A DNA stretch of 64,000 nucleotides from Alkalispirochaeta sp. (GTDB taxonomy: Bacteria > Spirochaetota > Spirochaetia > DSM-27196 > Alkalispirochaetaceae), in contig OZ271854.1 of assembly GCA_965601925.1 (NCBI GenBank), positions 4,096,001-4,160,000 on the forward strand, written 5' to 3'. This document shows positions 46,308-64,000 of the stretch, piece after piece (position 1 is the first letter of the stretch; every line of letters begins with the position of its first letter). The notes under the pieces are model-generated. The model did not search any database. It saw nothing but the letters and a program-made list of their open reading frames with translations, and was not told the origin of the DNA. The translations under genes were made by a program, and so were the position numbers.

Positions 46308-46591
46308 GGAGGAGTATGTTTGGTCCTGTTTCTGTTGGGCCGAAGTATCCCACAGCGTATTGAACGGCCGAGTGTAAGCAGTACTGCCGCGATGATTCTG
46401 CCATTCGATCCCACGCGGTCGACTTGGAAGTACGTACGGTGAACCGAGAAATACGCGGTTCACGGTCGCCGGATAGCCGGCTCTTGATGTCGATAATTAT
46501 CGAGGGCTGCCGCATCAGAAGGCGAGGATATCATGTGAATCGCGGGGGGTACAGTGCGGCGGGGAGTATGATTACGCCTTTGCACCACGGT

Positions 46592-47011
46592 CTTCGGGCG
46601 CGTCTCCCCTTGTTCAACGAAGGGAGCGGCCGTCGGTGTCGATCACTCAGCAGGCCCTTCGGGCCAGAAGTCGTGCTCGCCACCGCCGTCCGTTCCCCGG
46701 CGCGTTTCAACAGAGATGTCTCGTCCTCTTGTGAGATGTCGGGGGGACCGGGCTCCGGGTTCCGGGTTCCAATTCCTCGGCCCGATCATGGGTGGATGGT
46801 GGTGCGGTAGTTCTTACGACGGCTTGTCGTACCCATCACGCACCGACCGCTTCTCGGCTCACTTCGGCCGCATACCCGAGCAGCACGCAGTGCGTGCGAC
46901 CAGGGGCCGATCGCCGGCGGTCGTCGCCCCGGGCCGGCTGCATGGGCGCGCGGCAATCCGCCAAGGATTGCGACCAGCCCCTGTGGGATTTCCTCCCTTC
47001 GCACTCGCGCT
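46592..47011. repeat. Hairpin-rich intergenic element, copy A (longest)
   Basis: Shares TCGGGCGCGTCTCCCC, CGATCACTCAGCAGGCCCTYCGGGCCAGAAGTCG and GCCACCGCCGTCCGTT with copies B and C; has two extra hairpin insertions relative to C. Confidence 0.9.
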
Positions 47012-47116
47012 ACGGTAAGTCATGTCGCGTTTGGTTCAACTGCGCGGTTTCGCCCCACTTCATCGTCCAGATGAGGTTTTGGATCTCCACGTTATTGTAA
47101 AAACATATACCGACAG

Positions 47117-48037
47117 TCAGGGTCCTGACGGCACGTTGAACTCAAGCCGGAAGTCCGGATTTCGTGTTTGTAGTTCGTCAAGATGCTCATTGAACCACGA
47201 TTCGAGCCGCTCGTACGTTCCAGTCCGCGGTCCAAATACCGTGTTGTTGATACTGTCGATATACAAGGTCCGAATATTCGACTCCAACAATGCGTCGATG
47301 TTGTTGAGTTCGGGTGTCTGCATAATATTCAAATCAAACTCGCCTGGAGTTGTATCAATGTTGTCGAGCGAACGAATTTGCGTCGAATCGACCCTAAGCA
47401 CACTAAGTCGCGTCATCCCTGACATATCCGGCAACGAGGTAATCCCCGTAAATGCAACATCGAGATACTCGATGTGTTCGTTATTCACGAGGACATCAAT
47501 TGATGAAATATCAGACCGGAAAAGTGTCAAATGACGCACATCGGTGTCAGCAATATTGGCAATGTCTTCGACTCTATCATTGAATGACAACTGCGATAGG
47601 GACAACTCCTTAGGAAGCTCCGGAACAGTTCGGACGTCAATATAATAGGTGGAAATGCTATCAATCCAACTGATCGCCATAGGGGAAAGTCGTGCTAAAT
47701 TATGAAGCAATCCTGTATCAGATCGTATCTCGTCGCGCATACCGGGAACACCCAAGTTACGCGTCCTCGAAGACCATTCGCCATCATATTGGTCCGCATA
47801 TGCTGTTAGCTCGGCGTTGATTGCGTCGATCGTCTGTTGATCCAACTCGCCATCCGGCGTCATTAAGCGATCAGTTCCAAGAACTTCTGTCGTCGCCTCC
47901 TCATTGACCAAAACTACCGGTGCCGATGATATCGGCTCCGAATCGCTTGTGCCATCGACATCTTTCGAACACGCGCTAAGGCTAAGAAGCAGAAGTACAA
48001 AGCATATGAGAAAATACCATACTTGTTTCTTCATCAT
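47117..48037 (-). CDS. Leucine-rich-repeat lipoprotein (putative orphan immunity protein)
   Basis: Lipobox LSAC; LxxLxLxxxxI repeats (IEYLDVAFTGITSLPD, LSVLRVDSTQIRSLD). Confidence 0.75.
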   Translation of the reverse strand: MMKKQVWYFLICFVLLLLSLSACSKDVDGTSDSEPISSAPVVLVNEEATTEVLGTDRLMTPDGELDQQTIDAINAELTAYADQYDGEWSSRTRNLGVPGMRDEIRSDTGLLHNLARLSPMAISWIDSISTYYIDVRTVPELPKELSLSQLSFNDRVEDIANIADTDVRHLTLFRSDISSIDVLVNNEHIEYLDVAFTGITSLPDMSGMTRLSVLRVDSTQIRSLDNIDTTPGEFDLNIMQTPELNNIDALLESNIRTLYIDSINNTVFGPRTGTYERLESWFNEHLDELQTRNPDFRLEFNVPSGP

Positions 48038-48062
48038 TACCGGTAAGATGACGATTCAAACA

Positions 48063-49082
48063 CTACTCGGCTTCGCGGTACTGATTTTCAGGTACTTTCC
48101 AAGCTCGAACGGTACGCTCAAGTCGCTCTATTGGTCGCTCCCATGTGTGGTTGCGAATGATGGCGCTGATGGCGGTGTCGTCCCAACGACTCCCGGGGTA
48201 CACATCCAGAATCTCGAGTTGCACGGATCGAGTCGGCGTAGGGAAGTTAATGTATGAGAGCTCGACGACATCTTCAAATGTGTATTCAAACTCAAACCGT
48301 GTTTCCGGGTCCGTCGATCGGATCATCGCCGTACGCACACGATTGTTCATTCGAAACAAATGACGTCGCTCAGGATCAACAAATCCATTGAGCACGAGCA
48401 TGTGATCAGAGGGCTCTTCAAAGGTGATATCAAGCGTTACGCCAATCCCCGGCCCCTCTTCGCCTTCGACCCACGGATTATGGAGTGCGTTCCAGTACAT
48501 TGAGATTTGGTCACCAAAGAAAATGCTGCGAAGCAGCTGTGGTCCATACACAACCTCTTCTCCGTTAACGTCTTCTGACAAGATAGAGTGCGCAGATATC
48601 GACTCAACCCCAAAGCTGTATATTCGATGAGGTTCATTTCCCTCCGTTGCGGGCTCCAAAATCCAGAGTGCGTTCGGATTGTGGGCATTTATCTCAGTGC
48701 TGAAAAGCTGAAGGAAATTACCGCCAAACAACGTGAAAAAATCTTGACCCATGATCGTCGTTTCGTAATATCCACTCTCTGTCAAGACAATATCGTCGAC
48801 ATTCATCTCTTGCCAAATGGTGTCGAAGAACCACGTCATTGTGTCGCCCTCGCGCACAACGAATGATCCCGCGACCGGGAAATACCCGAACGCATTAGCG
48901 GCCACTTCGACTATCGGTTCAGCCGAGCCTGCATCGTCACTAGGTTCAACCATCAAAAGATGTGTTTCGTCAGCTAACATCGGCTCGCCGTTTGCATTGA
49001 TGGCACGGGAATCCCCTTCGGATTGCCGACAAGAAATAACCGTGATCAGAAAAATGATAATACCGACTGTTACTCGTCTCAT
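48063..49082 (-). CDS. Lipoprotein, putative immunity protein for the 49086 cassette (NADase-type glycan-binding-like C-terminal domain)
   Basis: Lipobox VISC; PWVEG..GPGIG, NGFVD...LF.MNNRV, ILDVYPGSRWDDTAIS; starts 3 nt after the upstream stop. Confidence 0.7.
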   Translation of the reverse strand: MRRVTVGIIIFLITVISCRQSEGDSRAINANGEPMLADETHLLMVEPSDDAGSAEPIVEVAANAFGYFPVAGSFVVREGDTMTWFFDTIWQEMNVDDIVLTESGYYETTIMGQDFFTLFGGNFLQLFSTEINAHNPNALWILEPATEGNEPHRIYSFGVESISAHSILSEDVNGEEVVYGPQLLRSIFFGDQISMYWNALHNPWVEGEEGPGIGVTLDITFEEPSDHMLVLNGFVDPERRHLFRMNNRVRTAMIRSTDPETRFEFEYTFEDVVELSYINFPTPTRSVQLEILDVYPGSRWDDTAISAIIRNHTWERPIERLERTVRAWKVPENQYREAE

Positions 49083-49085
49083 AGT

Positions 49086-50984
49086 TTAATAGTACCAACT
49101 GTACCACGTATCTTCGAAGGGGACTTCGAATAACGTTGCGTCGATATGGTACCCACTCTCCATACCGGTCGATTCTAGAAATCCGAAAGTCGATTGAATC
49201 GTATCGTGCGATGTCACAAAACATCCGTCAGAGAAACATCCACTCGCCCAATCGGATGTAGCACCGGCAGCTCTATTTGAATGAAGAAGCCACCGTTCCC
49301 AGTCTGTTCCGTTACGCCCATCGTTACCGATCGCCTGTCCATCCAGTGTTGCGGCATTGTTAAGAATCAGTACTGCGTTCTGATTGCCGTCAATCTCTCC
49401 TGCAAATCCCGACGACTGACCATAATACGTTATACCCAACGATCCCGGCGCGATCGTGTTTCCCTGCACATTGCCGTGTACCGGATGATCGAACGGCTGG
49501 CTTAAGTTATCACCGCGCCTGTTCGTTGTCATATTGTCGACGGTGTGATACCCGCCAAACGCATCACCCGCGATGAGGTTACCGTCCAAGTCGTACTGCT
49601 GAATCACCAGATGATCCTGACTCTGGCTTCCTGGGTTATAGAGGTCATCCTCGTAAGCCGACCAGCCATTGTAGGTGTCGGGATTGCGAAAGATCTCGGC
49701 CTTCACGGTCGAGTATTCATACGCGCCGTCGGTGTACTCAGCCAAAATCCGACCCTGCTCGGCAAGATTTCGGTCGGTCAACGTCATGCCCTCAACTGTA
49801 AAGCCGCCTTCTCCGTCTGCTTGCCAACGACCTGCATCACCATTCCACTCCGCTCCCGCATTCTTCAACAACGCCTCGCCCACTAAGCTGTTCCGTTGCG
49901 CATCCGTCAGCCCATCAAGGCTTGCTCCCGGGTCGTGGCGTAGTATCTGCACATCAACCGCCGAAAATCCAAACACATCCATGAGTGTCTGGTCATCGTA
50001 GTTGCTTGGATCTGTTATGTCGCCTCCTAATAGCTGTCCCGCGCGTTCGTCGTCAACAAGGTTTCCCAGCGATGCAGCCCACCCCATTTCGTTCTGAGCG
50101 CCCTGTCCTTCTGGCGTCATCGTGCTGATCACATCGCCTTCGGCGTTTAGATACTCGACGGTCAACTCTTTGCTCCCGTCGTCGATGAGCTCATGAGTTC
50201 CATCGGCGTGTACGACCAGTTTCCAATAATCCGCACTGGAATCATAGGCACCGCCCACATACGAGACAAAGTCGCTGAAGTCACCTGTCTTCTGCGCCTC
50301 CACCAACCGCTTCACCTCGTCCTGTTGCATCCCCGTCAGCTGCTCGTCTCCGTAGATCCCCGCGACCTGCTGCGCCACCAACGTGTGGCCGACGACCGCT
50401 TGTACCGTCTCCTGCTGTTGTCCCAGCTCCCCGTTATCCACCCCATCCCGAAACGCCTCGTGCGATAACGTCAGTCCCAGCTGATACTTACTCCCCGCAC
50501 TCGCGCCGTCTCCCAGGTAGATCTGCTTCTGTCCGTTGACCAGCTCCGTCTCGGCACGACCGTCCGTACCGCCCCGTACCAACCGCGCCTCGCCCGACAT
50601 CAACTCATCATACAGCGCTTCGGTTTCGGCCAGTCCCGACGTGTCCAGCATCCGCATCGCGATCGCCTCGTCTCCGCGGAATCCCTCACGATGGATGTCC
50701 AAGCTCCGCCGGTACGATGAGAATCCGCCCATCCCTTGCATCACCTGGCCCACGCTCATCCCGATGCCCCCCATGCCCACATTGAACACCGGTCGATCGC
50801 CCCCCAGATTCAGCTCCAGTAGTCCCGTACCCGTGGGTCCTCCGAGGTCGCTCATGCTCAACACATTCAACGTCGTTTGCCCCGTCGGGCTTCGGGCGCG
50901 TCTCCCCCGGTTCCAATTCGGGGGGAGCGGTCGTCGGTGTCGATCACTCAGCAGGCCCTCCGGGCCAGAAGTCGCGACCGCCAC
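49086..50984 (-). CDS. Orphan toxin C-terminal cassette 2 with a Tlde1/YkuD-like tip
   Basis: TGQTTLN...GLLELNLGGDRPVFNVG is homologous to the giant protein; HEAFRDG, DYWKL; tip WLLH-x16-SDGCF; homology starts near 50886, and GTG 50984 lies inside element B. Confidence 0.75.
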   Translation of the reverse strand: MAVATSGPEGLLSDRHRRPLPPNWNRGRRARSPTGQTTLNVLSMSDLGGPTGTGLLELNLGGDRPVFNVGMGGIGMSVGQVMQGMGGFSSYRRSLDIHREGFRGDEAIAMRMLDTSGLAETEALYDELMSGEARLVRGGTDGRAETELVNGQKQIYLGDGASAGSKYQLGLTLSHEAFRDGVDNGELGQQQETVQAVVGHTLVAQQVAGIYGDEQLTGMQQDEVKRLVEAQKTGDFSDFVSYVGGAYDSSADYWKLVVHADGTHELIDDGSKELTVEYLNAEGDVISTMTPEGQGAQNEMGWAASLGNLVDDERAGQLLGGDITDPSNYDDQTLMDVFGFSAVDVQILRHDPGASLDGLTDAQRNSLVGEALLKNAGAEWNGDAGRWQADGEGGFTVEGMTLTDRNLAEQGRILAEYTDGAYEYSTVKAEIFRNPDTYNGWSAYEDDLYNPGSQSQDHLVIQQYDLDGNLIAGDAFGGYHTVDNMTTNRRGDNLSQPFDHPVHGNVQGNTIAPGSLGITYYGQSSGFAGEIDGNQNAVLILNNAATLDGQAIGNDGRNGTDWERWLLHSNRAAGATSDWASGCFSDGCFVTSHDTIQSTFGFLESTGMESGYHIDATLFEVPFEDTWYSWYY

Positions 50985-51122
50985 CGCCGTCCGTTCCCCG
51001 GCGGAGTACCGTAGGTGTGTCTCATTCTCATATGGGATGTCGGGGGGAGACCGGGCTGCGGACTGATAGTCCTCAGCCCGGCAATGGGTGGATAGTGCTG
51101 TGATTACTCTTACGTCGGTTCG
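50890..51122. repeat. Hairpin-rich intergenic element, copy B (truncated)
   Basis: Same conserved blocks as A and C; lacks their distal (higher-coordinate) part; abuts cassette 2. Confidence 0.9.
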
Positions 51123-51185
51123 CCGCAACTACTCTGCGTACATTCTCTTGCAGAGACTTCTCGATCTCTGCTCGTATCATCCCCG

Positions 51186-51836
51186 CTAACGAGTCCCTTG
51201 TGGGCAGTTTCGTTCAGGACTGCATTTGCTCGCCATTAGGCCAAAGTGATTGAGAAACAAATCTATCACTCGATTGCCGTCGTAAGGTTCTAATGACTCG
51301 CCGTAGTCGAGCCATCCATGGGCTGCTAAATCATGGGCAGTCATGCTCAATAGCCAATTGTAAGCCCCATCATTGCGTACGGTGTACTCAACTGCGCGTA
51401 CTACGAATGCCATCATTGCCTCATGGGCGCGCGGTTCTTGCGCAGGATCCAGTAGCCCAAGAGTTCCGGAAACTCCTTGCAAGCCAGCAATCGCCAAGGA
51501 ACTCGTCGCCCAACGGCGAGTCGATTCAGATCTCTCGATGAGCTTGACTTCCGACAAGAGAGAAACAACGTCGTCAACTTGCAGATCCGTCCGTCTCTCC
51601 AGCGCTAGGAGCGCGGCATCTGCAGAAGCCGACATGGGAAAATGGGCCGCGAAACGATACATATAAACTTCGAGCAAAACAGACGTATCGAGCTGCGAAA
51701 GCTCATCGTGAGGGATCGCTTCAACTCGCTCTATCATCTCACGTAGTTCGTTATCACTGTCCCAAGGGTCGGCATGTGTAAGTGTTGCGATAACGCAACA
51801 CTGCAAAATAAAAAGTAATCCGTAACGGTTCTGCAT
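51186..51836 (-). CDS. Exported putative immunity protein, paralogue of 52290-52916
   Basis: Signal peptide; shared WDS....R and LDPxQEPRA.E.MM.FV.RA.E.TVRND motifs; TGATG overlap with the upstream tip remnant. Confidence 0.78.
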   Translation of the reverse strand: MQNRYGLLFILQCCVIATLTHADPWDSDNELREMIERVEAIPHDELSQLDTSVLLEVYMYRFAAHFPMSASADAALLALERRTDLQVDDVVSLLSEVKLIERSESTRRWATSSLAIAGLQGVSGTLGLLDPAQEPRAHEAMMAFVVRAVEYTVRNDGAYNWLLSMTAHDLAAHGWLDYGESLEPYDGNRVIDLFLNHFGLMASKCSPERNCPQGTR

Positions 51837-52045
51837 CAGTGGTACCATCCCGTGAAAGGTGTGCCGGGCCGTGATAGCAAGCCGCGATACGAGCTCGGAT
51901 TGTTGCCTAAACCACCAGGAGGAATGCTACCACCCACGGCAAACGCCATGAGTCCCTCCGTGTGTCCAAAGTACGGAACTGGAGGTGGGGCCGGATTGTT
52001 GATACCTTCCACTGCGTAGTTATACAGCCACTGGCCGGCGGGCAT
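51836..52045 (-). pseudogene. Toxin-tip remnant paralogous to the end of cassette 1
   Basis: AGQWLYNYAVEGIN...YFGHTEGLMAFAVGG...PFTGWYH versus AGQWVYNYGVEGIN...YFGHTEELMAYAIGG...PYTGWYY. Confidence 0.85.
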
Positions 52046-52289
52046 CTCTTGGCAGGTATCTATCAGGTCGGTCGTCAAACAACAATTCGGAACTCTGCTC
52101 CAACGCGTCGACACTGTTAAAGCATATGCTCTGATTGTTGTGCTAAAAAACATTGATCGCTCGTTTGTTCCTACCGCTTCATCTCCCGTTTCTCCACTTC
52201 AGCACTTGCATGAAGTATTGGATACCAAAAACCTGCTGCGTTCGCCGTGAGTCCTCATACAATTAACCAGCTTTAGTCTCGCCGTATCC

Positions 52290-52916
52290 TTACCAGCCCT
52301 CGGGTCGTTGCATTGTCGCGGTGATTCCGTAGTGATCCAAAAACGATTGGACAAATGGTCGAACTGCGTTTCGATCATCAGGCGGATCAAATCCCAACCA
52401 ACCACCCCGATGTAGTGTTCCGACAGTGGCGGTTAGCAAAAAGTTTTCCGCAGCGTCATTTCGCACAGTGAACTCGATCGCGCGAGCAACAAAACCCATC
52501 ATAAGTTCAGCTGCGCGCGGCTCTTGATCGGGATCCAGCATATCCATCTCTTCGGCTAAATCCTTTAGTCCTACTAAGGCCCACATACTAGAATCCGACA
52601 AATAGACGGACTCAACTGAAGCTATAATCGGGATGTCAGCCATAGTCACCAATATATGATCAGGCTCAAGGTCAGACCTAAAAGCAAGCTCATTAAGTAC
52701 ATCCAATGCGGTGGGTGATACATCTATATAATGGACTGAATGATATGTATAAGCCTCAACGAGCTCAGTGGTAGAAAGCTCATCGAAATCCTTTTCGGAA
52801 ATCGAATCAAAATACTCTTTAGAGGACCGTAAAGCGTCTTCACTGTCCCACCACTGTGCATGTATCGCGTCGATGAGTAACCCCAAGATGATTGAACAAA
52901 TTATCCATTTCTTCAT
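52290..52916 (-). CDS. Exported putative immunity protein for cassette 1
   Basis: MKKWII...AIHA signal peptide; TAATG stop/start overlap with cassette 1. Confidence 0.78.
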   Translation of the reverse strand: MKKWIICSIILGLLIDAIHAQWWDSEDALRSSKEYFDSISEKDFDELSTTELVEAYTYHSVHYIDVSPTALDVLNELAFRSDLEPDHILVTMADIPIIASVESVYLSDSSMWALVGLKDLAEEMDMLDPDQEPRAAELMMGFVARAIEFTVRNDAAENFLLTATVGTLHRGGWLGFDPPDDRNAVRPFVQSFLDHYGITATMQRPEGW

Positions 52917-55510
52917 TAATAATACCATCCTGTATAGGGTGATGGAGGCGTCAGCAAACCATCAAATGATGGAGCACCAGGATAAGCCCGATCGGCTCCC
53001 ATGAAACCGCCAATAGCATACGCCATCAACTCCTCAGTGTGGCCAAAATATGAATAGGGAAAACCTGGACTGATAGACCTGTTGATGCCCTCGACACCGT
53101 AGTTGTATACCCATTGGCCCGCAGACGTCGTCTGGCCGGTCTTCAGCACACCGGTCGTCAATGCTCGCAAGCTGTGTACACCTTCATGCATAAGAACGGC
53201 CGCGCGACTCTGACTAATACGACCAGGCTGAAGATCGCCGGCTTGCAATGGAGTAAGCACAAACTCTCCAAAGCTCATCATACTTGGAAGTCGATTTAGA
53301 TTTGGTGCACTTCCCGCAATCTGTGAGCTGATTGATGCGGCTAACTCGAACTGTTTCGTCGTTAGTCCGAGCACACTCAAGTTATCTAACACATCTTGCG
53401 TACCCTGCTGCCCCAATCCGTTCAATGTTCCTTGCAACTCCTGCAGTGGCCCAACAAACACTGAATCCTGAGGATTGTTGAATAGTTGGTCGCCGAAACT
53501 ACCCGATGTCCGATCGTGCAGCATCTGAGCAACCATCTGGGTGTTAATTAGAGAATCGAACGATACGTTCACATTGGGCAAGAGTGCACTACCGGCAGGG
53601 TTCATATCGATTGCCTCACTCACCCCTTCGGCAAACGTCTCGGCCTGAAACGCCAGGTTGAACGCTTCGTTCTGCGTGTCCAAGAACTCCCGAAGCGGGA
53701 CCGTATTGCCGTTTCCGTCGACAACTTGGGTACTATGTTGATTGTTCGGTAGATTGACTTCTTCCCCTACCTCGATAGAATCCCGATCGACAAGATGCGG
53801 GTTCATCCCCACGATCATATCCACCAGCGCCGCAGCCTTCGGATCGTTTGGGTCGATGCCGTAGATCTCTTCAATTAGGCCGCCTAAGGTGTCCCCGGCC
53901 TCTACCTCAGAAACGAATCCTAAATCTCCCGTAGCATTGATCTCCTGCACCGTATGAAGCCAGTTATCCTCACTGAAATCATAGCCGGTCATCACGTGTT
54001 CGGCAAACGCACTGAAGTCGCCGCTCGCCAATGCCTCCTCCATCATGTCCGCCTGCTCGCGTAATGCCGCGTCGCTGTCCAAGAATCCTTCGTAGTCCTG
54101 CTCCATCCGCATCGCCATCAACGTGTGCGCCGCCACCGCATCAAACGTCTCCTCATATTGTCCCCGAAAACCGTCTCCGATCCCGTTCCGGTGCGCCTCG
54201 TGTTGTAGCACCACCCCCGCCCGCAGACGGCTATTCACATTGTCCCGACCCCGTTCGCCCAAGGTCCCCAGATGGATCGTCTTCCGGCCATTCTCCAGCG
54301 TCGTCTTTCCATCCTGATTCACAAACCCGATCGCCATATCCGTTCGTCCCGCCAGAATATCCTCGCGGGCCGCCTGTAGTTCCTCATCCCCGTACGAATA
54401 CGCCGATCGCAACATCGTCCCTTCCCGCCGTATCCCCTCATATCCTGCCGCATACCGCGTTCCGCCGAACAGCTCGTACGCTGTGTTCCGCATGTTCTCT
54501 TTCCACGTTCCGAACCCGGCAACTCCCTGCGCTACCGTCACCGCGCTCGCGTCGATTCCTCCCATACCCATATTGAATACCGGTCGGTCGCCGCCGATGT
54601 TGAACTCCAACAACCCCGTCGACACCATCGCACCATTCGCCATCTCGATGCCGAACATGTTCATATTCAGCATGTTCAACGTCGTCTCACCCGTCCACGC
54701 GTACTCCAGTCCCGCCTGTGCCGCACCGCCTACCAGACCGCTGAAACTCCTCGCTTGGCTTGCGTGTTCCGCGCTGAATCCTTCGAGGTTTCCTGCAACA
54801 CCCGCGCCCACAACCGCGCCGGCCAGTCCCGCCAGGGCGTCCTCGCTGATCGTCGCGTCCTGGAACGTGTCGGTGTTGAAGTCGATGTCAAAGAAGCTGT
54901 CGCTATTCCACTCCAGCGAGTTGATCGCCGCGCTCGTCGTCGTGCTTGCTACGTACTGCATCCCGGCCATCGCCGCCTGGCCCACCAACGTGCTTCCCAC
55001 GTTCACCACTTCACCCAATCCGCCGCTGATCAGGTTCGTCATGAGTGTCGCCGCGGCCTTCTTCCCAAACGCTTCCCACGCATCGTCCGCGTCTTGCGCT
55101 CCTACCGCCACGTCCAGGCTCGTGAAGATCGCGTCGTCGGTCATGCTGATCGCCGTCGAGACCGCCGCTCCCGCCGCGTTGCCCGCCACCGCCGTGACCG
55201 CCGCCCCCGCAACCGATGCCGCGACCGCAAACCCGATGTCGTACGCCATCGTCACCGTCGGGGCGCCCAATAGTCCGTCCGGCTTCCCGTCGTTGTTCGC
55301 GTCGTCGTCCCAGAATCGTTGGCGATACAGTGGTACTTCCATCGCCGCCAGTCCGCGGCCCAACCGCCCCTCGTTTTTCATGAACGATTCCATGATCCGG
55401 CCCATCTCGCCGTAGAGTCTCGGGCGCGTCTCCCCTGTTCCAATCACGGGGGCCGGCCGTCGATATCGATCACTCAGCAGGCCCTTCGGGCCAGAAGTCG
55501 CGATCGCCAC
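52916..55510 (-). CDS. Orphan toxin C-terminal cassette 1 (LysM-like + HExxH tip)
   Basis: About 205 aa after the leader are nearly identical to the giant protein (GEMGRIME...GAVVGAGV); HEAHRNG, DNW, VEAGDTL...NP....I.VGEEVNLP, HEGVH; GTG 55510 lies inside element C. Confidence 0.8.
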   Translation of the reverse strand: MAIATSGPKGLLSDRYRRPAPVIGTGETRPRLYGEMGRIMESFMKNEGRLGRGLAAMEVPLYRQRFWDDDANNDGKPDGLLGAPTVTMAYDIGFAVAASVAGAAVTAVAGNAAGAAVSTAISMTDDAIFTSLDVAVGAQDADDAWEAFGKKAAATLMTNLISGGLGEVVNVGSTLVGQAAMAGMQYVASTTTSAAINSLEWNSDSFFDIDFNTDTFQDATISEDALAGLAGAVVGAGVAGNLEGFSAEHASQARSFSGLVGGAAQAGLEYAWTGETTLNMLNMNMFGIEMANGAMVSTGLLEFNIGGDRPVFNMGMGGIDASAVTVAQGVAGFGTWKENMRNTAYELFGGTRYAAGYEGIRREGTMLRSAYSYGDEELQAAREDILAGRTDMAIGFVNQDGKTTLENGRKTIHLGTLGERGRDNVNSRLRAGVVLQHEAHRNGIGDGFRGQYEETFDAVAAHTLMAMRMEQDYEGFLDSDAALREQADMMEEALASGDFSAFAEHVMTGYDFSEDNWLHTVQEINATGDLGFVSEVEAGDTLGGLIEEIYGIDPNDPKAAALVDMIVGMNPHLVDRDSIEVGEEVNLPNNQHSTQVVDGNGNTVPLREFLDTQNEAFNLAFQAETFAEGVSEAIDMNPAGSALLPNVNVSFDSLINTQMVAQMLHDRTSGSFGDQLFNNPQDSVFVGPLQELQGTLNGLGQQGTQDVLDNLSVLGLTTKQFELAASISSQIAGSAPNLNRLPSMMSFGEFVLTPLQAGDLQPGRISQSRAAVLMHEGVHSLRALTTGVLKTGQTTSAGQWVYNYGVEGINRSISPGFPYSYFGHTEELMAYAIGGFMGADRAYPGAPSFDGLLTPPSPYTGWYY
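54799..55413. repeat. Direct repeat of giant-gene segment ~58299-58915
   Basis: Near-identical DNA over about 615 bp, with mostly synonymous differences. Confidence 0.92.
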
Positions 55511-55742
55511 CGCCGTCCGTTTCCCAGCGGTTTCTATCAGGTGTGGCTCGTCCTCGTATGATGTGTCGGGGAGACCGGGCTCCGGGTTCCAATTCCTCGG
55601 CCCGGCAATGGATGGATGGTGATGTGACTAATCTTGCGTCGGTCCGTTGGAATCACGCCGCGACGGCCGCTTCTCGGCTCACTGCCGATCGCCGGCGGTC
55701 GTCGCCCGGGCCTGTGGGATTTCCTCCCTCCGCCCTCGCGCT
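55420..55742. repeat. Hairpin-rich intergenic element, copy C
   Basis: Same conserved blocks as A and B; ends CTGTGGGATTTCCTCCC..CGC.CTCGCGCT as in A; lies 6 nt from the cassette-1 homology arm. Confidence 0.9.
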
Positions 55743-55791
55743 CGTTGAGAGTTATGTTATTCCCAATAGCGATAGAGAGCGGCATAAAACG

Positions 55792-56463
55792 CTAAACCCC
55801 TTCGATCATGATGTACTGATCCGCCGGCACCTCTTCGATCAATTCAAGCGTCCCCGCATCGGGATCGATCCGAATAATCGCATCCGGATGAAACCACTGA
55901 TCGTATACCAACGGATCGGTTTCAAAGTCCCAGTGCTCCAACCCAAACGAGTACTCCACCCGCTCTCCGATGAGCGATGAGGGATCGGAAACCGCCGCCA
56001 AGTCTTGGATCGTCACCAACGTGTTCTCCTTCTCCACGATCAGCCAATCGGAGAGTCGATAACTGTCGCCGTCTCGACGTGAGTAGAAAAACACAGCTCG
56101 GTCGGCTAAAGCAGCAATGTTAAACCAGCCAGTATCTCCCGTTCGCGGGATCGACATTCCTCCGCTATGATAAGCTCTATTTTCTTGTTGTTTCTCTCGA
56201 ATCCATCGACTCATGGTTGGAGTTGGCAGTTGTGCTCCACGATATTGCTCAAAGTCCACCGTCTCGTTGTTTCCTGCGTCAATCTGCTCGAGCAATTCGA
56301 TCAACTCCTCGTCGGTCATGGTCGGTCGCTGTCCCTCGGCAACGACCGGCTCGCTCGCGGTCGTGTCCATTTCGGCACTCATCGGCTCTTGCGTCTCTGC
56401 AGGGCGTACACAGGAACCCAACATCACTACCAACACTATCGTCATCATTATTATCCTGGCCAT
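55792..56463 (-). CDS. Lipoprotein, putative cognate immunity protein for the M23 tip
   Basis: Lipobox LGSC; starts 2 nt after the giant gene stop. Confidence 0.75.
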   Translation of the reverse strand: MARIIMMTIVLVVMLGSCVRPAETQEPMSAEMDTTASEPVVAEGQRPTMTDEELIELLEQIDAGNNETVDFEQYRGAQLPTPTMSRWIREKQQENRAYHSGGMSIPRTGDTGWFNIAALADRAVFFYSRRDGDSYRLSDWLIVEKENTLVTIQDLAAVSDPSSLIGERVEYSFGLEHWDFETDPLVYDQWFHPDAIIRIDPDAGTLELIEEVPADQYIMIEGV

Positions 56464-56465
56464 CG

Positions 56466-59400
56466 TCAGTTCCCGTAGATGTGTGCGTCGAGATGAAAGG
56501 TATATTCGGTCGGATCCAAGAAGATGAACGGATCATAGCGATACCCCGTTCCTCGTGGCAGACGCTGATTCGCGTTGCTCATCAAGCTGTCCACCAACGG
56601 ACTTCGCTGCTGTGTCGTTATATCCACATGCAAGTGATTCCCATACGGCGACACACCTGGCCATACCCCTGTGTTGCCCGAGAGCCCGAGTTGCGTATTA
56701 CCGAACACCAACTGACCGTCTGCAAGGTTCTCGTTTCGTGACTCAAGATGAAGGTAGCGGGTCAGGATCGAATCGGTGCGAGGCTCTCCCTTGAATGTAT
56801 ACGTAACATCCGTGCGTGTCTCCTGAAAAAGTCCTGCAGCCACATTCAAATCGTCTCCAAAATTGTTGAATCGTGTATTTCCCCCGAACATGGAATGGAC
56901 CGGCGTACCCGCGGGCACGGCAAAGTCCACCCCGGTGTGCGGATTGGCCGAGTATGACCCGGTCGCGCCGAAGATCGCCGTCACCTCCGAGCCCGCCATG
57001 ATGTTATTCACCTGCAGATTCGTCTCCCCCGTGATGAAGTTCTGCTCCTTCCACTGCTCGTAGCTGATCACATCCACCTCCGGTTGCCGCCCGTCCCAAT
57101 AGTCGGTCTCCGGTCCCAATACCACCGGTCGCTCCACGTCCATCAACCCTCGCGCTACCAGGTCATTATAGATATTCAGCGTGTTGTGTCCCGCCAGCCG
57201 CTCGTTATAGATCGCCGCATACCGCTCGTTGTCCAGTCCAATCGAGCGGCCCGCGTTGCCCTCGTGGTTCCACCATACGCCCTCTCCGCGAAGCTCGAAC
57301 TCCTCGCCCCGCAAGAGCTCCGCCGCCTCGGCCGCCCCGATTCCCAGGATGTTCTGCAATCCTCCCTGAATCCCCTCGGCACCGATCCGGTTCCCGTCGT
57401 CGTCCAGGATGTAATTCCCGTTCGAGTCCTTCAACCACCCGTCTTCGGTCATCACCAACGAGCCGTCTTCCATCAGTTTCCAGTTATCCACCGGTCCCTG
57501 ATTCGGGAGGTAGCTCCGGCCGTCCGCCAATGCATCCTCGATACTCTGCTCAAAGGCCGCATTCCCCTCCAACTCTAACGCCGCGACCACATTGTTGTAC
57601 ACCGCATCACCCACCAGATGGGCGTTCGCCTCCGTCGTCTCCCCGGTCAGCATCCGGTCAAACAAATGCGTTCCCTCGTGCGCCGCCACCGACGCCAACA
57701 TCGCCGCCGTCTCTTTGTCATTCGCCAGCAGGTCTCGGTTCATCACGATTGTCGTCGGATCCGCTCCATGGTTGTAGTATCCGTAGTGTCCTTCGTCCAG
57801 ATCCTCATAGCGCGTCTGGATGTCTTTATTCCACACCCCCGTTGCCAACGCCAGATTCCCCGCGATCGCATTGTAGTTCACCAGATTCAGGTCACCTCGA
57901 CTCTCAATTCCCCGTTTAGTACCCAATGCGCCGCCGATCTTCGCACTCCCGATCCGCGCAATATCGCTCATACCGCCCATCGCCGTCGCAATCGAGCCCA
58001 CGTCAAAGCTCGTACCCCCGCTTCCCACGTTGAACGCAGGGCCGTCGCCGCCGATGTTGAACTCCAACAGTCCCTGACTCAGGATTCCAGGCCCATCGCC
58101 CGTCTCATACTCGATACCCAGCATGCTCAGGTTCACCAGGTTCGCCGTCGTGTCTCCCGTCCATGCGTAGTCCACACCCATCTTGGCTGCGTTCCCCGCA
58201 AGACTCGAAAAGCTCGTGATCGCGTCGGTGTCGAATACCTCGCTGTTCAACGCAACGCCCGTGCCGTCCGATCCCAGGAAGTCTCCCAGTCCGCCGGTCA
58301 CCCCCGCTCCCACAACCGCGCCGGCAAGGCCCGCCAGGGCGTCATCGCTCATCGTCGCATCCTGGAAGGTGTCGGTGTTGAAGTCGATGTCGAAGAAGCT
58401 GTCCGAGTTCCATTCCAACGAGTTGATCGCCGCACTTGTAGTGGTGCTTGCCGCGTATTGCATGCCCGCCATCGCCGCCTGGCCCACCAACGTGCTGCCC
58501 ACGTTCACCACTTCTCCCAATCCGCCGCTGATCAGGTTCGTCATGAGTGTCGCCGCGGCCTTCTTCCCAAATGCCTCCCACGCATCGTCCGCGTCTTGCG
58601 CTCCTACCGCCACGTCCAGACTCGTGAAGATCGCGTCGTCGGTCATGCTGATTGCCGTCGACACCGCCGCTCCCGCCGCGTTCCCAGCCACCGCCGTGAC
58701 TGCACCGCCGACCACCGATGCCGCGATCGCAAACTTGATGTCGTACACCATCGTCACCGTCGGTGCGCCCAACAGTCCGTCCGGTCTCCCGTCGTTGTTT
58801 GCGTCGTCGTCCCAGAATCGTTGGCGATACAGCGGCACTTCCATCGCCGCCAGTCCGCGGCCCAACCGCCCTTCGTTCTTCATGAACGCTTCCATGATCC
58901 GGCCCATCTCGCCGTGACCCGCTTCCTGCACTCGCTCCGGGTTGTCGCTGCGCATGATCGGCGCGTAGCCGACGTGGAAGTTGAATAGTCCTTCCGTGTC
59001 GTGGTGCAGGTACTCCTCCTCGCCGCTCTCTTCATTCTCCCGCGTCCGGTGGTAGCCCGCCGCCGCTTCCCAACTCGCGGTGGCTGCCGCAAAGCGCTCT
59101 TTGAGCTCGCCGTTCAGCTCCTCGATACTGATCGCGCCGGTTCCTTCGTCTTTCTGGTCGTCGTTCCGTCCGAAGATCAGAATCTGATATCGCTCCATCT
59201 CTTCGTACGCCGCCGCGATCATCGTCTGGATGCCTCGACTCGACAAGCCGTCCAACGACTCCTCCGAGAGGTCCACCTGGGGTGCAAAGACCGGTGAGGT
59301 GAAGTAACGATAGTCTTCTACTCGCTGTGTCTCTCGTTCGATGCCCCCAAACAGCGTCTCATCGATGATGATCCGGCGACTCCATTCTCGTCCCGATAAG

Positions 59401-62400
59401 CGGTATCCTTCCCGCTCGAAGGTGTCCTCGATGCTTCCCGCCATGTTCCGGTTCGCGTCGTCTATCCCGTCGGTCGCCGCGTTGATCCCTTCGCGGATCT
59501 GTTCCCGCATCTGCAATGCCGTCACGCGCATCGCGCGCCGCTGGATCTCTTCGCCCAACTCGTCCGATAGCGCTCGGGCGCTTCGCGCACTCTGCGTCGT
59601 CGAGCGTACCCGCGGCAGATACGCCGCCACGATCGGGCTCCCGCCGGCGCGGTCGGCGATCCGGCCCGCCTCGCGCACGATCGTCGAGAGCATCCGTCCG
59701 TCGGTCGCCTCCCGCACCGTGTGTTCCAGATTCCCCACTTCGATATCCAGATCCGGGACTGCGATCGCTTCGCTTTCGGCGATCAGCCGTTCGGCGTCCA
59801 GTCCCACTTGTCGCGCCGTCGCCTCGCTCCCGGCGCGCACCGCGTGCTGCGTCGTCCGTTCGATCCATTCCGTACGCGATTGCGTCATCCGGTCGTAGCG
59901 GGCGTTCCACACCGCCACCGCCTCCGCATACGCCTCCTGCGTCTCTTCCTGGAACCGTTTCCGCTGTCCCGCCAACCGGACCGATCCCGCCTGCCACTCC
60001 GTGAGGCCCGTCGCCACGAGGCTGTTCATCCGGACCGTCCAGTCGTCCTCGCGACGCATCAGCGTCTCGTACTCCATGGTCAGGCGGTGGGATTGCGCGG
60101 TATGGACGCCGCCCAGGCGCATCCCCGCCGCGTCGTGAATGTGGGCGGCGATCAGCTCCAGCTGAAATGCCCGCGCCTCGTCGTTGAAGGTCGCAAGAGC
60201 GCCGGTCGGCGCTCCCGTCGTACCGCGGCGAATCAAGACCGCCTCCATCGATCCCTGTCGATACGCCATGTGGTCGGCGATGTCGTAGGCGGGGTCGGCA
60301 AAGCGCGTGCGCGTCACCGTCTCCAGCTCCGCCTCGGTGACCTCTTCGCCCCGCAGATAGCGTCCCAACACCGTCTCGTAGGATATCTGGTCGTTCTGTT
60401 GCACCGTCGCCAGCTCCGCGATCCGGTCGGCGACCGCCGTTCCCGCGGTATGGACGTCCGATGCCAACCGCGCCTCGGCGGCGGCAAGGACCGAGAGGCT
60501 CGTCGCGCGCTCCGATGCGCTTCCGCCGCTCACCACCTCGGCAATCATGGCGCTCAGTTCGGCCGAAATCGCACCGGTACCCGACGCGGTCAGGGAGGTA
60601 CGCACCTCCGCCGCGGTGGGGCGTTTGCCCGCCAGTACGCGCAGCTCGGCCGCCTTCGTATTCTGATCGTCAAGCGCCGTCGTTCCTTCGCCGAATAGTT
60701 CCATCGAGACCGTCCGCTCGTCCGCACCGGAGTAGTTCGGCAGCTGTCGCCGCAGGCTTCGGATACGCTTACCTCGGCGTCGCTTGAAGATCCGTCGGAG
60801 CCGCATGTAGTCCCGCTGCTTGTCCCGCGCCCGGTCGTCCACGTACTCGCGCGCGATATGTGAGACGTCGTCGGCGACCCACGTAACGTGGTCGGCGGCA
60901 AACGATACGTTCTCCCCGCCGTGCACCACTACCATAGAAAAGAAGCGATAGGCGCCCAGTGCCAAACTGTTCCCGTGCACCCGATGGTGTGCCGCCTCGA
61001 GGTCGTTTCTGACGCGGCTGTCCACGCTTCCTTGAGACCATCCGATCTTGCCCAATAGGTTATTGAAGGTCTGATTGTTGTAGATCGGCGCTTTGGTCAC
61101 CGCATAGTCATCCTCAGGATGAACACCGGCAAAATAGAGGTCGTAATACAACGCCAGGCCGATATCGCGATATACTCCGCCACCCAGTTGGTTCATCGTG
61201 CGAATCCATGCACCCAAATCGGTCGAAAAGGCTTCCTGCCAGTCGCCGGAGAAGTAGCCGGCGGTCTGAAACCGTTCCGAATTTCCCGAAATCCGTCCCG
61301 TACCGATCGCGTCGTAGTCCGGTGCGAAGGTATAGTCCGCGCCGTATACCAGCTGATGGGCCGTCCGTGCGACCTCCATTTGGCTCGCCGCCAATGCACC
61401 TTCGGCCCCCGAGGTCTTGACCGCCAACGTCTCCCGGACCACCGCCGCCTCTTGGTAGGTCAGCATCGCCTCGCGCTCCTCGGCGATGAGGTCTTCGTAG
61501 CGCTGGTCCCGACTCGCGTCGGTCACACGCTCGGCGTGCTCTTCCACCAGACGCAAGGCGGTGCGCGCTCGTTCCAACTCCTCGCTCCGCCGCAGCACCA
61601 CCGCCGCCGGGTCGATCTCGTCGGTCAGATACCCGGTGCGCGCGTAGTCCATGATCTCCTCGGCCTCTTGTAGCTCCCGGCGTGCCGCAGTATACGCGCC
61701 CCGCGCCGTATCCACTCCGCTCGCCGCCGCCGCATAGTCCGTTACCGCCTCATCAAAGGCGCGAATCGCCTCCTCGTACTCCCGTCGGGCGTCGTCCACC
61801 CTCCCGCGCTGCGTCTTGATATCTTCCTTCAGCGGGGCGATGGTATTTGTCGCAAACTGCGCGGCATCCGCCTCAAAGTCCGCCTGCGTCGCCCGCGCCG
61901 CATCCAGGTCACCCAGCGTCCCCAGATAGGTCGACTCGGCACCCAGAAAGGTCGTCCGGGCGCCGGATCGTGCGCTCCCCGCCGCCCCGTCGGTCACCAA
62001 CTCCACGATCTCGTCGCGGCTGCTCGTCGTCAACGCCGCGATCGCCTCGCCGATCAGTCCCTTGATCGGCGCGCTCGCGATCCCCCCGGTAGTCGTCGGG
62101 CTGGTCAGGGTGTGATAGCTCGTGTCACCCGCCTCGTCCACCAGATGTCGCAACCACGCCGCCCCGGCGTTGGCTTTCGTCAGACCCTCGTACTCACTCC
62201 GCAGGGCGCCGACACCCGCGTCGTCGGCACTCCCGCCGACCGCGGCCGCCGCCGCATCGCGATCATCCGTACTCGCATCCGGGTCTTCCAACACCTCCAA
62301 CGCCGCGGCCAATACTTCGGCGCGCTCCCGATTCTCCACGGGACCCACGAACGACACCGACCCACCCAGCTCCGCGATCCGCGCCCGCGTGTACACCGTC

Positions 62401-64000
62401 ACCAGGTCCGCCACCGCCGTGGGAATGTCGTCCATCGCCACCAGCTCTTCGTAGATATCCCGCAACGTCGCAATGGACGGAACGGTGTCTCCCGTGGTGA
62501 TCGGCGCCACGATCGCCGTTACCGTCGCCGCGTAGACGGCCATTCGCGTCCCGATCGTGGTGATCGAGACCTCCCGATACGCCTCCCACGCGTCCCGTAA
62601 CGCCTCGGCGTCGGCGAGTGCCGTCACCTCGTCGCGAAGCAGATCGTCCACGAGTCCCGCGTAGTCGACGCCGAAGTCCGTATCCCGCTCTCCGGTCTCA
62701 AAGACGATCCGCGCCGCTCCCGCCGCATCGCTCCCGTCCGAAAGCGCATCCACGTCGATCGTCACCAGAGACGGGTCAAAGACCACATACGCCACCCCCG
62801 GCGGCGGCGTGCCCGCTCCCGTGTCGTCGGTCATGATATAGACCGTGCCGATCGCCGGATCCGCGGGGATCTCGCTCGCATCGGCTACCGTCACCACCGT
62901 CGGCTCCGTCGGCGCACTCAGGCCCGCGTCCACGGCCGCCGTCACCGCCGCCGCGTAAGCACTCGTCACCGCCGTATCTCGCGCCGCATCGATCATCGCG
63001 GCCTCCGCCGCCACCAAGGTGTCGTAGTGTCCTTGGATCGCGTCGCGCGCCGCCTCTCGCGCCGCGTCCAGAGCCGTGTAGGCCGCCGTCACCGCCGTGG
63101 TGTGGCCGTCCCCGATCACCGCGATCTCATCCGCGCTCGCCCATCCCGCCTCGTCGGTCACCACCGTGCCGCGCAATACGCGGATCGCGTACTCGCTCCG
63201 CGCCACATCCCGTGCCGCCGCCGCGGTCGCATCCGCCAGCAGCCGTTCCGCCGCCAGCTCGCGCAGCCGTCGTTCCGGTGTCCCCGTCCCCACCGCCGTC
63301 GCCGCATCGATCGCCGCCACCAGGTCCGCATACCGTCCCGTCTCGATATCGAGTCCCGCCGCCGCCAAGGTCAGTCCCAGCTCCTCGGCGTCCACCGTCG
63401 CCCAATCGATCGCGAGCCCCGCGAGTACATCTCGGTGCGCGATCAGCGTCGGAAGGTCGACGTACTCGTCGCTCTCCGCATCGTCACTCCCGGCAAGGTC
63501 ATGGGCGATCGAGAGCGCGTCCTCCCACGCCGTCGCCACGTGCGCATCCGCGTCGGCTCTCGCATACGCCTCCGCATTCGCCGCACGCCCTTCGCCGGCG
63601 TGCGTCGTAACGTGATCGGAGAGGGTGCGAATCAACGTGTCGTAGACGCTCGCGTCGTTTAACCGCTGCACCTCTTCCGCCGCCGCAAGCTCCGCGGTAA
63701 TCCGTCGCAGCTCCGCCTCCTCGATCGAGAGCGCCGCCTGCCGGTCCGCCAACGCCGCCTGGGCGTCGGGTAACAGCGTCCGCGTCATCGTCTCCAAGGT
63801 CGCGATCGCCTCGGCAAACGCCGCCTCCGCCGCCTCGAACGCCGCCCGCTCCACAGCATAGCGCGCCTCGGTCTCGGCCAACGTCGCGCGGTCCGAGGAG
63901 GTATCCGCCGCGTATGCGGCCACCGCCTCGGCAATGGCGTGCTGATCCTCCAGCGCGGCGACCATGCCCGCCAGTCGCGCCGCCTCCACCTCGCCGGAGC
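56466..64000 (-). CDS. Giant polymorphic-toxin-like protein (5' end outside the window) with a C-terminal M23 peptidase
   Basis: >2507 aa open frame; Ala/Glu/Asp/Thr-rich helical trunk, Gly/Ala-rich region, HEGTH, DNWKL; M23 motifs HTGVD, YLHL, GLSGNTG, HLH, YDP. Confidence 0.88.
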   Translation of the reverse strand, partial: SGEVEAARLAGMVAALEDQHAIAEAVAAYAADTSSDRATLAETEARYAVERAAFEAAEAAFAEAIATLETMTRTLLPDAQAALADRQAALSIEEAELRRITAELAAAEEVQRLNDASVYDTLIRTLSDHVTTHAGEGRAANAEAYARADADAHVATAWEDALSIAHDLAGSDDAESDEYVDLPTLIAHRDVLAGLAIDWATVDAEELGLTLAAAGLDIETGRYADLVAAIDAATAVGTGTPERRLRELAAERLLADATAAAARDVARSEYAIRVLRGTVVTDEAGWASADEIAVIGDGHTTAVTAAYTALDAAREAARDAIQGHYDTLVAAEAAMIDAARDTAVTSAYAAAVTAAVDAGLSAPTEPTVVTVADASEIPADPAIGTVYIMTDDTGAGTPPPGVAYVVFDPSLVTIDVDALSDGSDAAGAARIVFETGERDTDFGVDYAGLVDDLLRDEVTALADAEALRDAWEAYREVSITTIGTRMAVYAATVTAIVAPITTGDTVPSIATLRDIYEELVAMDDIPTAVADLVTVYTRARIAELGGSVSFVGPVENRERAEVLAAALEVLEDPDASTDDRDAAAAAVGGSADDAGVGALRSEYEGLTKANAGAAWLRHLVDEAGDTSYHTLTSPTTTGGIASAPIKGLIGEAIAALTTSSRDEIVELVTDGAAGSARSGARTTFLGAESTYLGTLGDLDAARATQADFEADAAQFATNTIAPLKEDIKTQRGRVDDARREYEEAIRAFDEAVTDYAAAASGVDTARGAYTAARRELQEAEEIMDYARTGYLTDEIDPAAVVLRRSEELERARTALRLVEEHAERVTDASRDQRYEDLIAEEREAMLTYQEAAVVRETLAVKTSGAEGALAASQMEVARTAHQLVYGADYTFAPDYDAIGTGRISGNSERFQTAGYFSGDWQEAFSTDLGAWIRTMNQLGGGVYRDIGLALYYDLYFAGVHPEDDYAVTKAPIYNNQTFNNLLGKIGWSQGSVDSRVRNDLEAAHHRVHGNSLALGAYRFFSMVVVHGGENVSFAADHVTWVADDVSHIAREYVDDRARDKQRDYMRLRRIFKRRRGKRIRSLRRQLPNYSGADERTVSMELFGEGTTALDDQNTKAAELRVLAGKRPTAAEVRTSLTASGTGAISAELSAMIAEVVSGGSASERATSLSVLAAAEARLASDVHTAGTAVADRIAELATVQQNDQISYETVLGRYLRGEEVTEAELETVTRTRFADPAYDIADHMAYRQGSMEAVLIRRGTTGAPTGALATFNDEARAFQLELIAAHIHDAAGMRLGGVHTAQSHRLTMEYETLMRREDDWTVRMNSLVATGLTEWQAGSVRLAGQRKRFQEETQEAYAEAVAVWNARYDRMTQSRTEWIERTTQHAVRAGSEATARQVGLDAERLIAESEAIAVPDLDIEVGNLEHTVREATDGRMLSTIVREAGRIADRAGGSPIVAAYLPRVRSTTQSARSARALSDELGEEIQRRAMRVTALQMREQIREGINAATDGIDDANRNMAGSIEDTFEREGYRLSGREWSRRIIIDETLFGGIERETQRVEDYRYFTSPVFAPQVDLSEESLDGLSSRGIQTMIAAAYEEMERYQILIFGRNDDQKDEGTGAISIEELNGELKERFAAATASWEAAAGYHRTRENEESGEEEYLHHDTEGLFNFHVGYAPIMRSDNPERVQEAGHGEMGRIMEAFMKNEGRLGRGLAAMEVPLYRQRFWDDDANNDGRPDGLLGAPTVTMVYDIKFAIAASVVGGAVTAVAGNAAGAAVSTAISMTDDAIFTSLDVAVGAQDADDAWEAFGKKAAATLMTNLISGGLGEVVNVGSTLVGQAAMAGMQYAASTTTSAAINSLEWNSDSFFDIDFNTDTFQDATMSDDALAGLAGAVVGAGVTGGLGDFLGSDGTGVALNSEVFDTDAITSFSSLAGNAAKMGVDYAWTGDTTANLVNLSMLGIEYETGDGPGILSQGLLEFNIGGDGPAFNVGSGGTSFDVGSIATAMGGMSDIARIGSAKIGGALGTKRGIESRGDLNLVNYNAIAGNLALATGVWNKDIQTRYEDLDEGHYGYYNHGADPTTIVMNRDLLANDKETAAMLASVAAHEGTHLFDRMLTGETTEANAHLVGDAVYNNVVAALELEGNAAFEQSIEDALADGRSYLPNQGPVDNWKLMEDGSLVMTEDGWLKDSNGNYILDDDGNRIGAEGIQGGLQNILGIGAAEAAELLRGEEFELRGEGVWWNHEGNAGRSIGLDNERYAAIYNERLAGHNTLNIYNDLVARGLMDVERPVVLGPETDYWDGRQPEVDVISYEQWKEQNFITGETNLQVNNIMAGSEVTAIFGATGSYSANPHTGVDFAVPAGTPVHSMFGGNTRFNNFGDDLNVAAGLFQETRTDVTYTFKGEPRTDSILTRYLHLESRNENLADGQLVFGNTQLGLSGNTGVWPGVSPYGNHLHVDITTQQRSPLVDSLMSNANQRLPRGTGYRYDPFIFLDPTEYTFHLDAHIYGN

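Follow-up and report, generated by a model that had tools for sequence, protein, structure and literature searches.

Orphan cassettes of polymorphic-toxin loci carry a toxin tip on a truncated piece of a trunk gene, and the displacement model for such loci is silent on the origin of the truncated 5' end. This question is raised by a stretch of 64,000 nucleotides (nt) from Alkalispirochaeta sp. (contig OZ271854.1, positions 4,096,001 to 4,160,000; the window in the following), in which a full-length toxin gene, T2, and the orphan cassettes B and C lie on the minus strand together with three copies, A, B and C, of a structured repeat. We find that this repeat, here called the element, heads the cassettes: its 3' end (minus strand) is fused with base precision to mid-gene positions of the trunk, and the junction thereby addresses the question of the truncated 5' end. 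In our view, this is probably a Flavo-1-like interspersed element, likely folded as single-stranded DNA (ssDNA) and likely used as a one-ended joining site: an enzyme acting in trans would link its 3' end to short ACG-containing targets. What is new is the repeated and precise use of an element at the heads of orphan toxin cassettes, and the three copies themselves are not toxin-specific. The literature covered on Flavo-1, spirochaete polymorphic-toxin cassettes, orphan cassettes with palindromes and site-specific recombination, and Rhs displacement, of which most subscription papers and the descriptive supplements of PMC2864571 are not part, does not describe this link.

Junctions between element and trunk

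The source genome of the window (G000; 5.05 Mb on a single contig, 96.7% complete) holds three full-length trunk genes and six orphan trunk fragments found by tblastn, and a seventh fragment, at genome position 1327045 and interrupted by an IS3-like element, was read by eye. All seven begin at an element. On the minus strand, the join consists of the end motif GACGCGCCC, eight variable bases and then ACG(A/G). At nt 6554 of the resident gene T1, at nt 7040 of T1 (two cassettes) and at nt 6764 of T2, trunk homology starts exactly 8 nt past this motif, the fragments are 91-98% identical to the resident gene from the join on, and the ACG(A/G) is also present in the intact resident gene at the matching point. 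The T2 site is that of cassette C, which is 93% identical to T2 from its ACGG core (55410..55413, minus) on. In cassette B, whose homologue T2 is distant (67%), the ACGG core (50882..50885, minus) again stands 8 nt past the end motif, and the codons of T2 aligned with it likewise contain ACGG. In run X5, from a different sample, one contig departs from cassette B at 50886 and continues as trunk sequence. Run X5 also contributes a new junction, equally spaced, at window position 57784. The G000 lineage thus has five independent sites where the trunk sets in at ACG(A/G), exactly 8 nt beyond the end motif; ACG(A/G) occupies 2.5-3.5% of trunk positions, and the rough chance of the five sites is 1e-5 with any tetranucleotide allowed for. 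An earlier note, written from the letters of the window, had let copies B and C end within a few nucleotides of the trunk homology; for C this could be fixed at exactly 8 nt past the end motif, whereas for B the evidence for the same position is weaker.

At the cassette heads, trunk is fused to one element end only, and always to the same one. The end-of-array copies, namely copy A, the copy at genome position 4313394 and copies behind T3, and the copy at 358561 in another genome (G017), have no trunk sequence after them. A common reading frame of the junctions was considered and given up, as it is broken by B and as 99 of 216 ACG(A/G) fall in that frame anyway.

Window copies, fold and strand

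Copy A (46588..47011, minus) and copy C (55414..55742, minus) are full elements, and copy B (50886..51122, minus) comprises the junction-side module and only the proximal part of the Flavo-1-like module, the distal part being absent. Pairwise, the three copies are 79-83% identical over aligned columns. They share one orientation, lie where the earlier note had placed them and are the only copies in the window, and each follows an immunity-like gene, starting 105 nt (A), 63 nt (B) or 49 nt (C) past the stop codon of a minus-strand low-GC gene. In copy C, the junction-side module contains a long covarying hairpin (55447..55522, minus) with the cap C-GAA-G at 55480-55492, the equivalent caps being at 46653-46665 in copy A and at 50954-50966 (C-GGA-G) in copy B. 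The Flavo-1-like module occupies 55567..55744 in copy C and about 46741-47015 in copy A (both minus), and short imperfect end repeats at 55421-55428 and 55737-55744 are able to close the fold of copy C. Copy A carries extra inserts at 46864-46905 and about 46930-46979, in which the two hairpins noted earlier are present (46883-46897 and 46953-46971). The other sequence details recorded before were largely recovered as well: a 33-nt core occurs three times in the window and varies solely between TTC and TCC, the alternative stem interior of copy B, GGACTGATAGTCC, stands at 51060-51072, and GTTCCAAT is found four times in the window, every time within the copies. The string GGGGAGAC, for which local or distant pairing had been proposed, is present in B (51044) and C (55568), but copy A has GGGGGGAC (46741), with one mismatch.

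The earlier proposal that variation between copies preserves structure is supported by a permutation of hairpin arms. In 26 of 29 copies (three out-of-register copies were excluded), the long hairpin's own arms form 341 Watson-Crick cells versus 274 +/- 8 with permuted arms, and none of 10000 permutations reaches the real value. On the plus strand, the mismatches of this hairpin are A-C in 37 cases versus G-T in 12, and pyrimidine-pyrimidine in 61 versus purine-purine in 17; the wobbles and purine pairs therefore belong to the minus strand. The 22 short apical loops include 14 triloops, of which 11 read C-GNA-G on the minus strand, with A, G, C and T all occurring at the middle position. The C-GNA-G triloop is unusually stable in DNA (PMC3201870). 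From these sequence features, we infer that the element folds as ssDNA, with the minus strand as the folding strand.

Relation to Flavo-1

Weinberg et al. (2010; PMC2864571) listed Flavo-1 (Rfam RF01705) as an RNA motif. An Rfam scan of the window region gave chance matches only, and neither the window copies nor G000 as a whole contain a Flavo-1 match. On the minus strand, shorter relatives of the element align with the full length of the Flavo-1 model at 25.7-34.6 bits, the gathering cut-off being 42, and their distal modules match with E values of 0.004-0.28 (best E 1.9e-5). When the Flavo-1 pairing register is laid on the family alignment (21 sequences, copy C included), 84.7% of the cells are paired and 8 of 11 pairs show two-sided changes; slid controls give 25-45%, and 0 of 500 shuffles reach 84.7%, a comparison in which the relatedness of the 21 sequences is uncontrolled. 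One pair of the register, 45/172, fails in 17 of the 21 rows. The likeness to Flavo-1 thus lies in the whole-model match on the same strand, the shared pairing register with its purine-rich-arm pattern, and the dispersed, intergenic occurrence, and the difference lies in a length two to five times greater and in an extra covarying hairpin module. By a sequence-only model, the family is present in 34 of 70 genomes of the order, and the long junction-side module has a narrow range (G000, genome G009 and run X5). The element is an enlarged variant of the orphan motif Flavo-1 that falls outside strict Flavo-1, REP, IS91, attC, group II intron and IS110 membership. Since its distal module is a divergent Flavo-1, the word unrecognised in the earlier note went too far. 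Neither a function for Flavo-1, nor a reading of it as DNA, nor a connection with toxins was found in the literature covered, again without those supplements, and our findings suggest a job for this motif.

Spread and modules in the source genome

An iterated nhmmer search (E <= 1e-4) of G000 detected 34 copies, 31 of them beyond the window. Ten lie within three toxin loci that make up 1.1% of the genome (binomial p 3e-12, which is overstated, since neighbouring copies are not independent). Many copies consist of the junction-side module only, and a 40-base hairpin is nested within several element loops. At the 24 non-toxin copies, GC content is low in the flank on the immunity side (p 0.0015) but not in the opposite flank (p 0.21), which hints that the polarity of the element is general. 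The copies at 1324152 and 1333065 are 98% identical over the junction half and 41% over the remainder, and those at 1333065 and 1337597 are 77% and 92% identical, half by half; together with the reused junctions, these values indicate recombination within elements. A lagging-strand bias was not used further: 25 of 34 copies follow it (p 0.009), but only 15 of 24 after removal of the toxin-locus copies.

Some further arrangements were seen. The copies at G000:C1:1333065, 1337597 and 4931214 carry a second type of distal module instead of the Flavo-1-like one, with the same CCTCGCGC ending. Pairs of copies in the same orientation bracket a GC-poor gene or gene pair, or stand in tandem beside one (G000:C1:2923113-2924194; 3515139-3517489; 3870691-3870969), and such pairs at housekeeping loci resemble free-standing cassettes. 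At G000:C1:1324600-1328068, an immunity gene is duplicated with a different element directly after each stop codon, and an IS3-like element splits the trunk fragment between the two duplicates.

Cassettes in other genomes

Four other genomes also have homologous elements at the heads of cassettes, which belong to three unrelated toxin families and in which the spacing is looser. In G017, a 3382-aa SpvB/RHS gene is accompanied by five element-headed cassettes at two junctions and by a sixth, terminal element without trunk. G028 has four full copies by BLAST, all at toxin junctions, three of them at cassettes of the window's trunk family, where TACCGA comes next each time, and the fourth at an RHS cassette; a later sequence model gives nine matches in this genome, the toxin context having been read for the four BLAST copies only. 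Two of three near-identical copies in G012 join gene fragments of a locus of the extracellular contractile injection system (eCIS) type at (G)ACGG; the third copy lies after a tRNA. In G009, the element stands in place of about 128 codons of an RHS gene, with the trunk immediately adjoining, an arrangement that looks like a deletion next to the element.

The eCIS-type loci are phage-tail-like, with variable toxin-immunity ends and a PF13699 core domain, and were seen in spirochaetes (G012:C31 and C61, our loci L116 and L117; G015:C46, L115). Genes resembling Rpn/YhgA occur at cassette boundaries of the same toxin family (G030:C1:1016000-1042000, G028:C1:1415153-1416073) and also beside Flavo-1-like copies at loci L027, L074 and L121; PF04754 was confirmed for those of L100 and L027.

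Points against the reading and the search for an enzyme

Several observations speak against a one-ended joining site that serves toxin cassettes. First, 24 of the 34 copies in G000 lie away from toxin loci, and several of these start at the TAG or TGA of housekeeping genes, so that the confinement to toxin arrays considered in the earlier note does not hold; such scatter is among the outcomes that the note itself had named as refuting its reading. By eye, the housekeeping genes are presumably fusA, guaA and ilvD. In other genomes, most family members are likewise single intergenic copies away from toxins. Second, the strict 8-nt spacing is limited to the G000 lineage, with 0-14 nt elsewhere: 0 in G009, about 3-14 and 9-11 in G017, and 10-13 in G028, where the core is ACCG and the RHS copy has no such core. 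Third, trunk and element do not always go together, as G017 has two further trunk fragments without element and as an array of the same trunk family in G030 gave no match to the element. Fourth, within the G000 lineage, the X5 joint at 57784 comes from one contig of depth 3.4, whose shorter side spans 31 nt, the seventh G000 junction has ATG and lacks a donor for comparison, and the junction at genome position 1329645 is uninformative because trunk homology runs through its 8-nt spacer. Fifth, the folding energy of the whole element is no better than that of shuffles (z 0.41 to -1.40). Finally, none of the copies examined was found to have an enzyme gene beside it, be it the linked recombinase, HUH or reverse transcriptase (RT) gene for which the earlier note had suggested looking, and G000 has no match to Y1_Tnp, RAYT, RVT_1 or PF02371 (PF01548 was not searched). 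Independently of this, the G030 array carries other short repeats in place of the element.

The wider search for an enzyme or an autonomous copy gave the following picture. G000 encodes an intact integron integrase, IntI (TIGR02249, 401 bits), at positions 3568284-3569585, as do G012, G017 and G028; IntI matches occur in 18 of 41 genomes, G030 included, and none was found in G009, which is 81% complete. G000 also has frameshifted and fragmentary transposases of the IS91 family (3753892-3755228 and 3626282-3626790), with more fragments at 1.49, 1.54, 2.18 and 3.74 Mb; BLAST of two such Y2 remnant regions matched no element copy, and their ends are unrelated. Ten Y1 loci of relatives (from 5 of 22 genomes) match neither element module, and none of the five PF00589 matches in G000 is near a toxin locus. 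Rpn/YhgA of the PF04754 type stands beside a few relatives' copies, and it was rejected as the required enzyme because G000 has no tblastn match to two of these proteins. The hunt for autonomous copies yielded eight loci with a genome-contig pattern and eight with a metagenome pattern (three real, all from one RHS locus, and five chance matches); viral patterns gave three chance loci and none, plasmid BLAST gave nothing real, and a class-wide pattern search matched one of 301 genomes, G000 itself. A transposase or recombinase was a consistent neighbour in none of these searches. A 212-aa tyrosine recombinase consisting of the catalytic domain only, with Lys for the first Arg and no obvious cargo, was seen at G000:C1:5023716-5024354.

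Proposed mechanism and rival explanations

We nevertheless favor the one-ended joining site, and its operation can be imagined in four steps. A copy of the element would land downstream of a toxin-immunity pair. Its 3' end would then be joined to an upstream trunk ACG(A/G), which would excise trunk tip, toxin, immunity gene and element as a circle; a duplication followed by deletion of the DNA adjoining the element would look the same at the junction. The circle may re-enter a resident trunk gene by a single homologous crossover, which would push the old toxin tip downstream as an element-headed orphan and leave the oldest copy last and without trunk. Trunk fragment and element would from then on serve as two homology arms, which would explain why junctions are reused and elements are mosaic. 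Contigs of the runs X1, X2 and X4 contained no joint readable as a circle, and the traced joints match other copies; a trunk-internal joint at 60683-61267 was left untraced, and contigs drop rare variants. By analogy, our guess for the enzyme class would give about half of what remains to an HUH single-strand transposase, and the next share to a tyrosine recombinase for which a short core suffices. For an enzyme hunt, the junctions define the substrate (the folded minus strand), the position (8 nt past the end motif) and the target (ACG(A/G)). The folded-ssDNA character, the mobile non-autonomous nature and the precise tie to cassette junctions, all proposed in the earlier note, are supported.

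The most serious rival, which we consider unlikely, is a passive repeat similar to repetitive extragenic palindromic (REP) sequences, whose hairpins provoke slippage or nuclease breaks; microhomology repair would delete adjacent DNA, selection for immunity genes would keep the products, and no dedicated enzyme would join anything at the cassette junctions. Copies unrelated to toxins, a spacing and core that differ between genomes, a number of bases shared at junctions that ranges from 4 to about 10, and the fruitless enzyme searches would all suit such a repeat. It does not easily account for five independent sites in one lineage with the same offset and core, though the 8 spacer bases differ between copies, nor for the fusion of trunk to one element end only. 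The likeness to REP sequences, their composite BIME arrangements and the associated RAYT transposases is real in that these are dispersed, intergenic, palindromic DNA, often touching stop codons, with nested hairpin inserts and, on the plus strand, CGTC at the foot of the first hairpin (PMC3733652). However, the REP unit is a tagged palindrome of 20-40 bp, whereas the units of our element are multi-branched and about 120-420 nt long, and a cognate Y1 transposase flanked by the repeat is absent both from G000, which has no RAYT, and from the 10 Y1 loci of relatives.

In a second explanation, the element would act at the RNA level, as a non-coding RNA or as a signal such as a terminator, insulator or processing site, and would control read-through between cassettes, with junction precision due to shared ancestry. 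The position shortly after gene stops in the sense direction, the covarying stems and the listing of Flavo-1 as an RNA motif (PMC2864571) agree with it. Triloops of the type C-GNA-G, in which the middle base is free, are characteristic of DNA (PMC3201870), and by these DNA-type loops the RNA reading appears disfavoured; Flavo-1 matches in a Flavobacterium transcriptome lie sense, antisense or outside transcripts, and are thus indifferent to transcript sense (PMC9723704), and junctions at different trunk positions cannot have one ancestor. We therefore regard an RNA signal as very improbable.

The chances are slimmer still for the integron integrase of G000 recombining the element as an atypical attC with attG-like trunk sites. 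The enzyme is there, IntI recombines folded ssDNA sites with genomic targets of very short length (10.1101/2022.09.11.507474), and, as in integrons and in Bacteroidales rAID-1 loci (10.1101/471110), a repeated intergenic site separates acquired low-GC immunity-gene cassettes. Yet the attG consensus GWT, as given in the former source, fits one of six target sites, sequences and folds of the element contain no attC R boxes (AAC...GTT) and no closing AAC/GTT pair, and the hairpin is on the wrong side of the AC. IntI is moreover found in G030, whose array is free of the element. The cassettes here hold a trunk fragment plus toxin tip, and no recombinase gene, XerD-like or other, stands at the array head.

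Slimmest are the chances of a non-autonomous IS110/IS1111-type derivative or a group II intron remnant: end repeats about 7 nt inside one end are set similarly in IS1111, and a 3' boundary that is often AC or AT resembles a group II intron 3' end, but a DEDD recombinase (PF02371; PF01548 aside), an RT and, in the Rfam scans, intron domains V/VI are all lacking, and targets that share only 3-4 bases are too short for an RNA guide.

The closest topological match to our junctions is the one-ended rolling-circle transposition of IS91/ISCR elements, whose two ends are unequal, whose target is of tetranucleotide size and is not duplicated, and which co-mobilise adjacent DNA from one end (PMC13181058). 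Our element shares the short target at one end without duplication (ACG(A/G), five sites). It differs by having no internal transposase gene and, by BLAST of the Y2 remnant regions, no similarity to the oriIS/terIS ends of the G000 IS91 remnants, and the IS91/ISCR targets CTTG/GTTC/GTCC are unlike ours. DDE-type miniature inverted-repeat transposable elements have terminal inverted repeats at the very ends and a target duplication; here, 8-bp imperfect repeats lie about 7 nt inside the junction, and flank duplication is not significant (p 0.05 direct in 18 copies, 0.65 inverted). For the C-terminal ends of Rhs and contact-dependent inhibition (CDI) toxins, displacement was reportedly described by Jackson in 2009 and Poole in 2011. 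Displacement by homologous recombination likewise leaves orphan tip-immunity cassettes with trunk homology behind a full-length gene (PMC10433429), but it covers the swapping of tips, whereas the truncated 5' end is here an element-defined junction.

A wider reading, which we put forward tentatively and would not rank above its contrary, is that a single-strand gene-capture system not described so far uses Flavo-1-type elements as its att-like sites. One end of the folded element would be fused to a target of 3-4 bases by an enzyme in trans, which would also package upstream DNA, and in this way spirochaetes could repeatedly have made orphan cassettes of three unrelated polymorphic-toxin families and dropped other foreign genes around the chromosome. 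Should the enzyme be found, this would be a new route of horizontal capture for toxin, immunity and other genes, and possibly a tool for one-ended DNA joining.

Toxin and immunity genes of the window

All genes of the array lie on the minus strand. T2 (56466..64000, its start being outside the window) encodes 3070 aa with a C-terminal M23 peptidase domain, beyond which the trunk family has no Pfam or NCBIfam match; homologues of the trunk occur in 10 of 41 genomes. A putative immunity lipoprotein of T2 follows at 55792..56463, as judged by position, signal peptide and low GC content. Cassette C (52916..55413) combines the truncated trunk with a different C-terminal domain containing an HExxH motif, and two paralogous putative immunity genes (52290-52928 and 51186-51848, within 51186..52928) with a short open reading frame between them come next. 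Cassette B (49086..50885) has a short trunk fragment and another C-terminal domain, its C-terminal 204 aa gave no match in a PDB sequence search, and it is followed within 47117..49082 by putative immunity lipoprotein genes at 48063-49082 (PF25302) and 47117-48037 (resembling leucine-rich repeat proteins). One tip of the trunk family has a His...Ser-Gly-Cys motif, which we take to be that of L,D-transpeptidases. Judged by sequence, the M23, HExxH and His...Ser-Gly-Cys tips suggest antibacterial toxins directed at the cell wall, in a delivery family without a name. A degenerate duplicate of the end of the cassette C toxin domain lies at 51836-52153 (minus) and precedes the second paralogous immunity gene.

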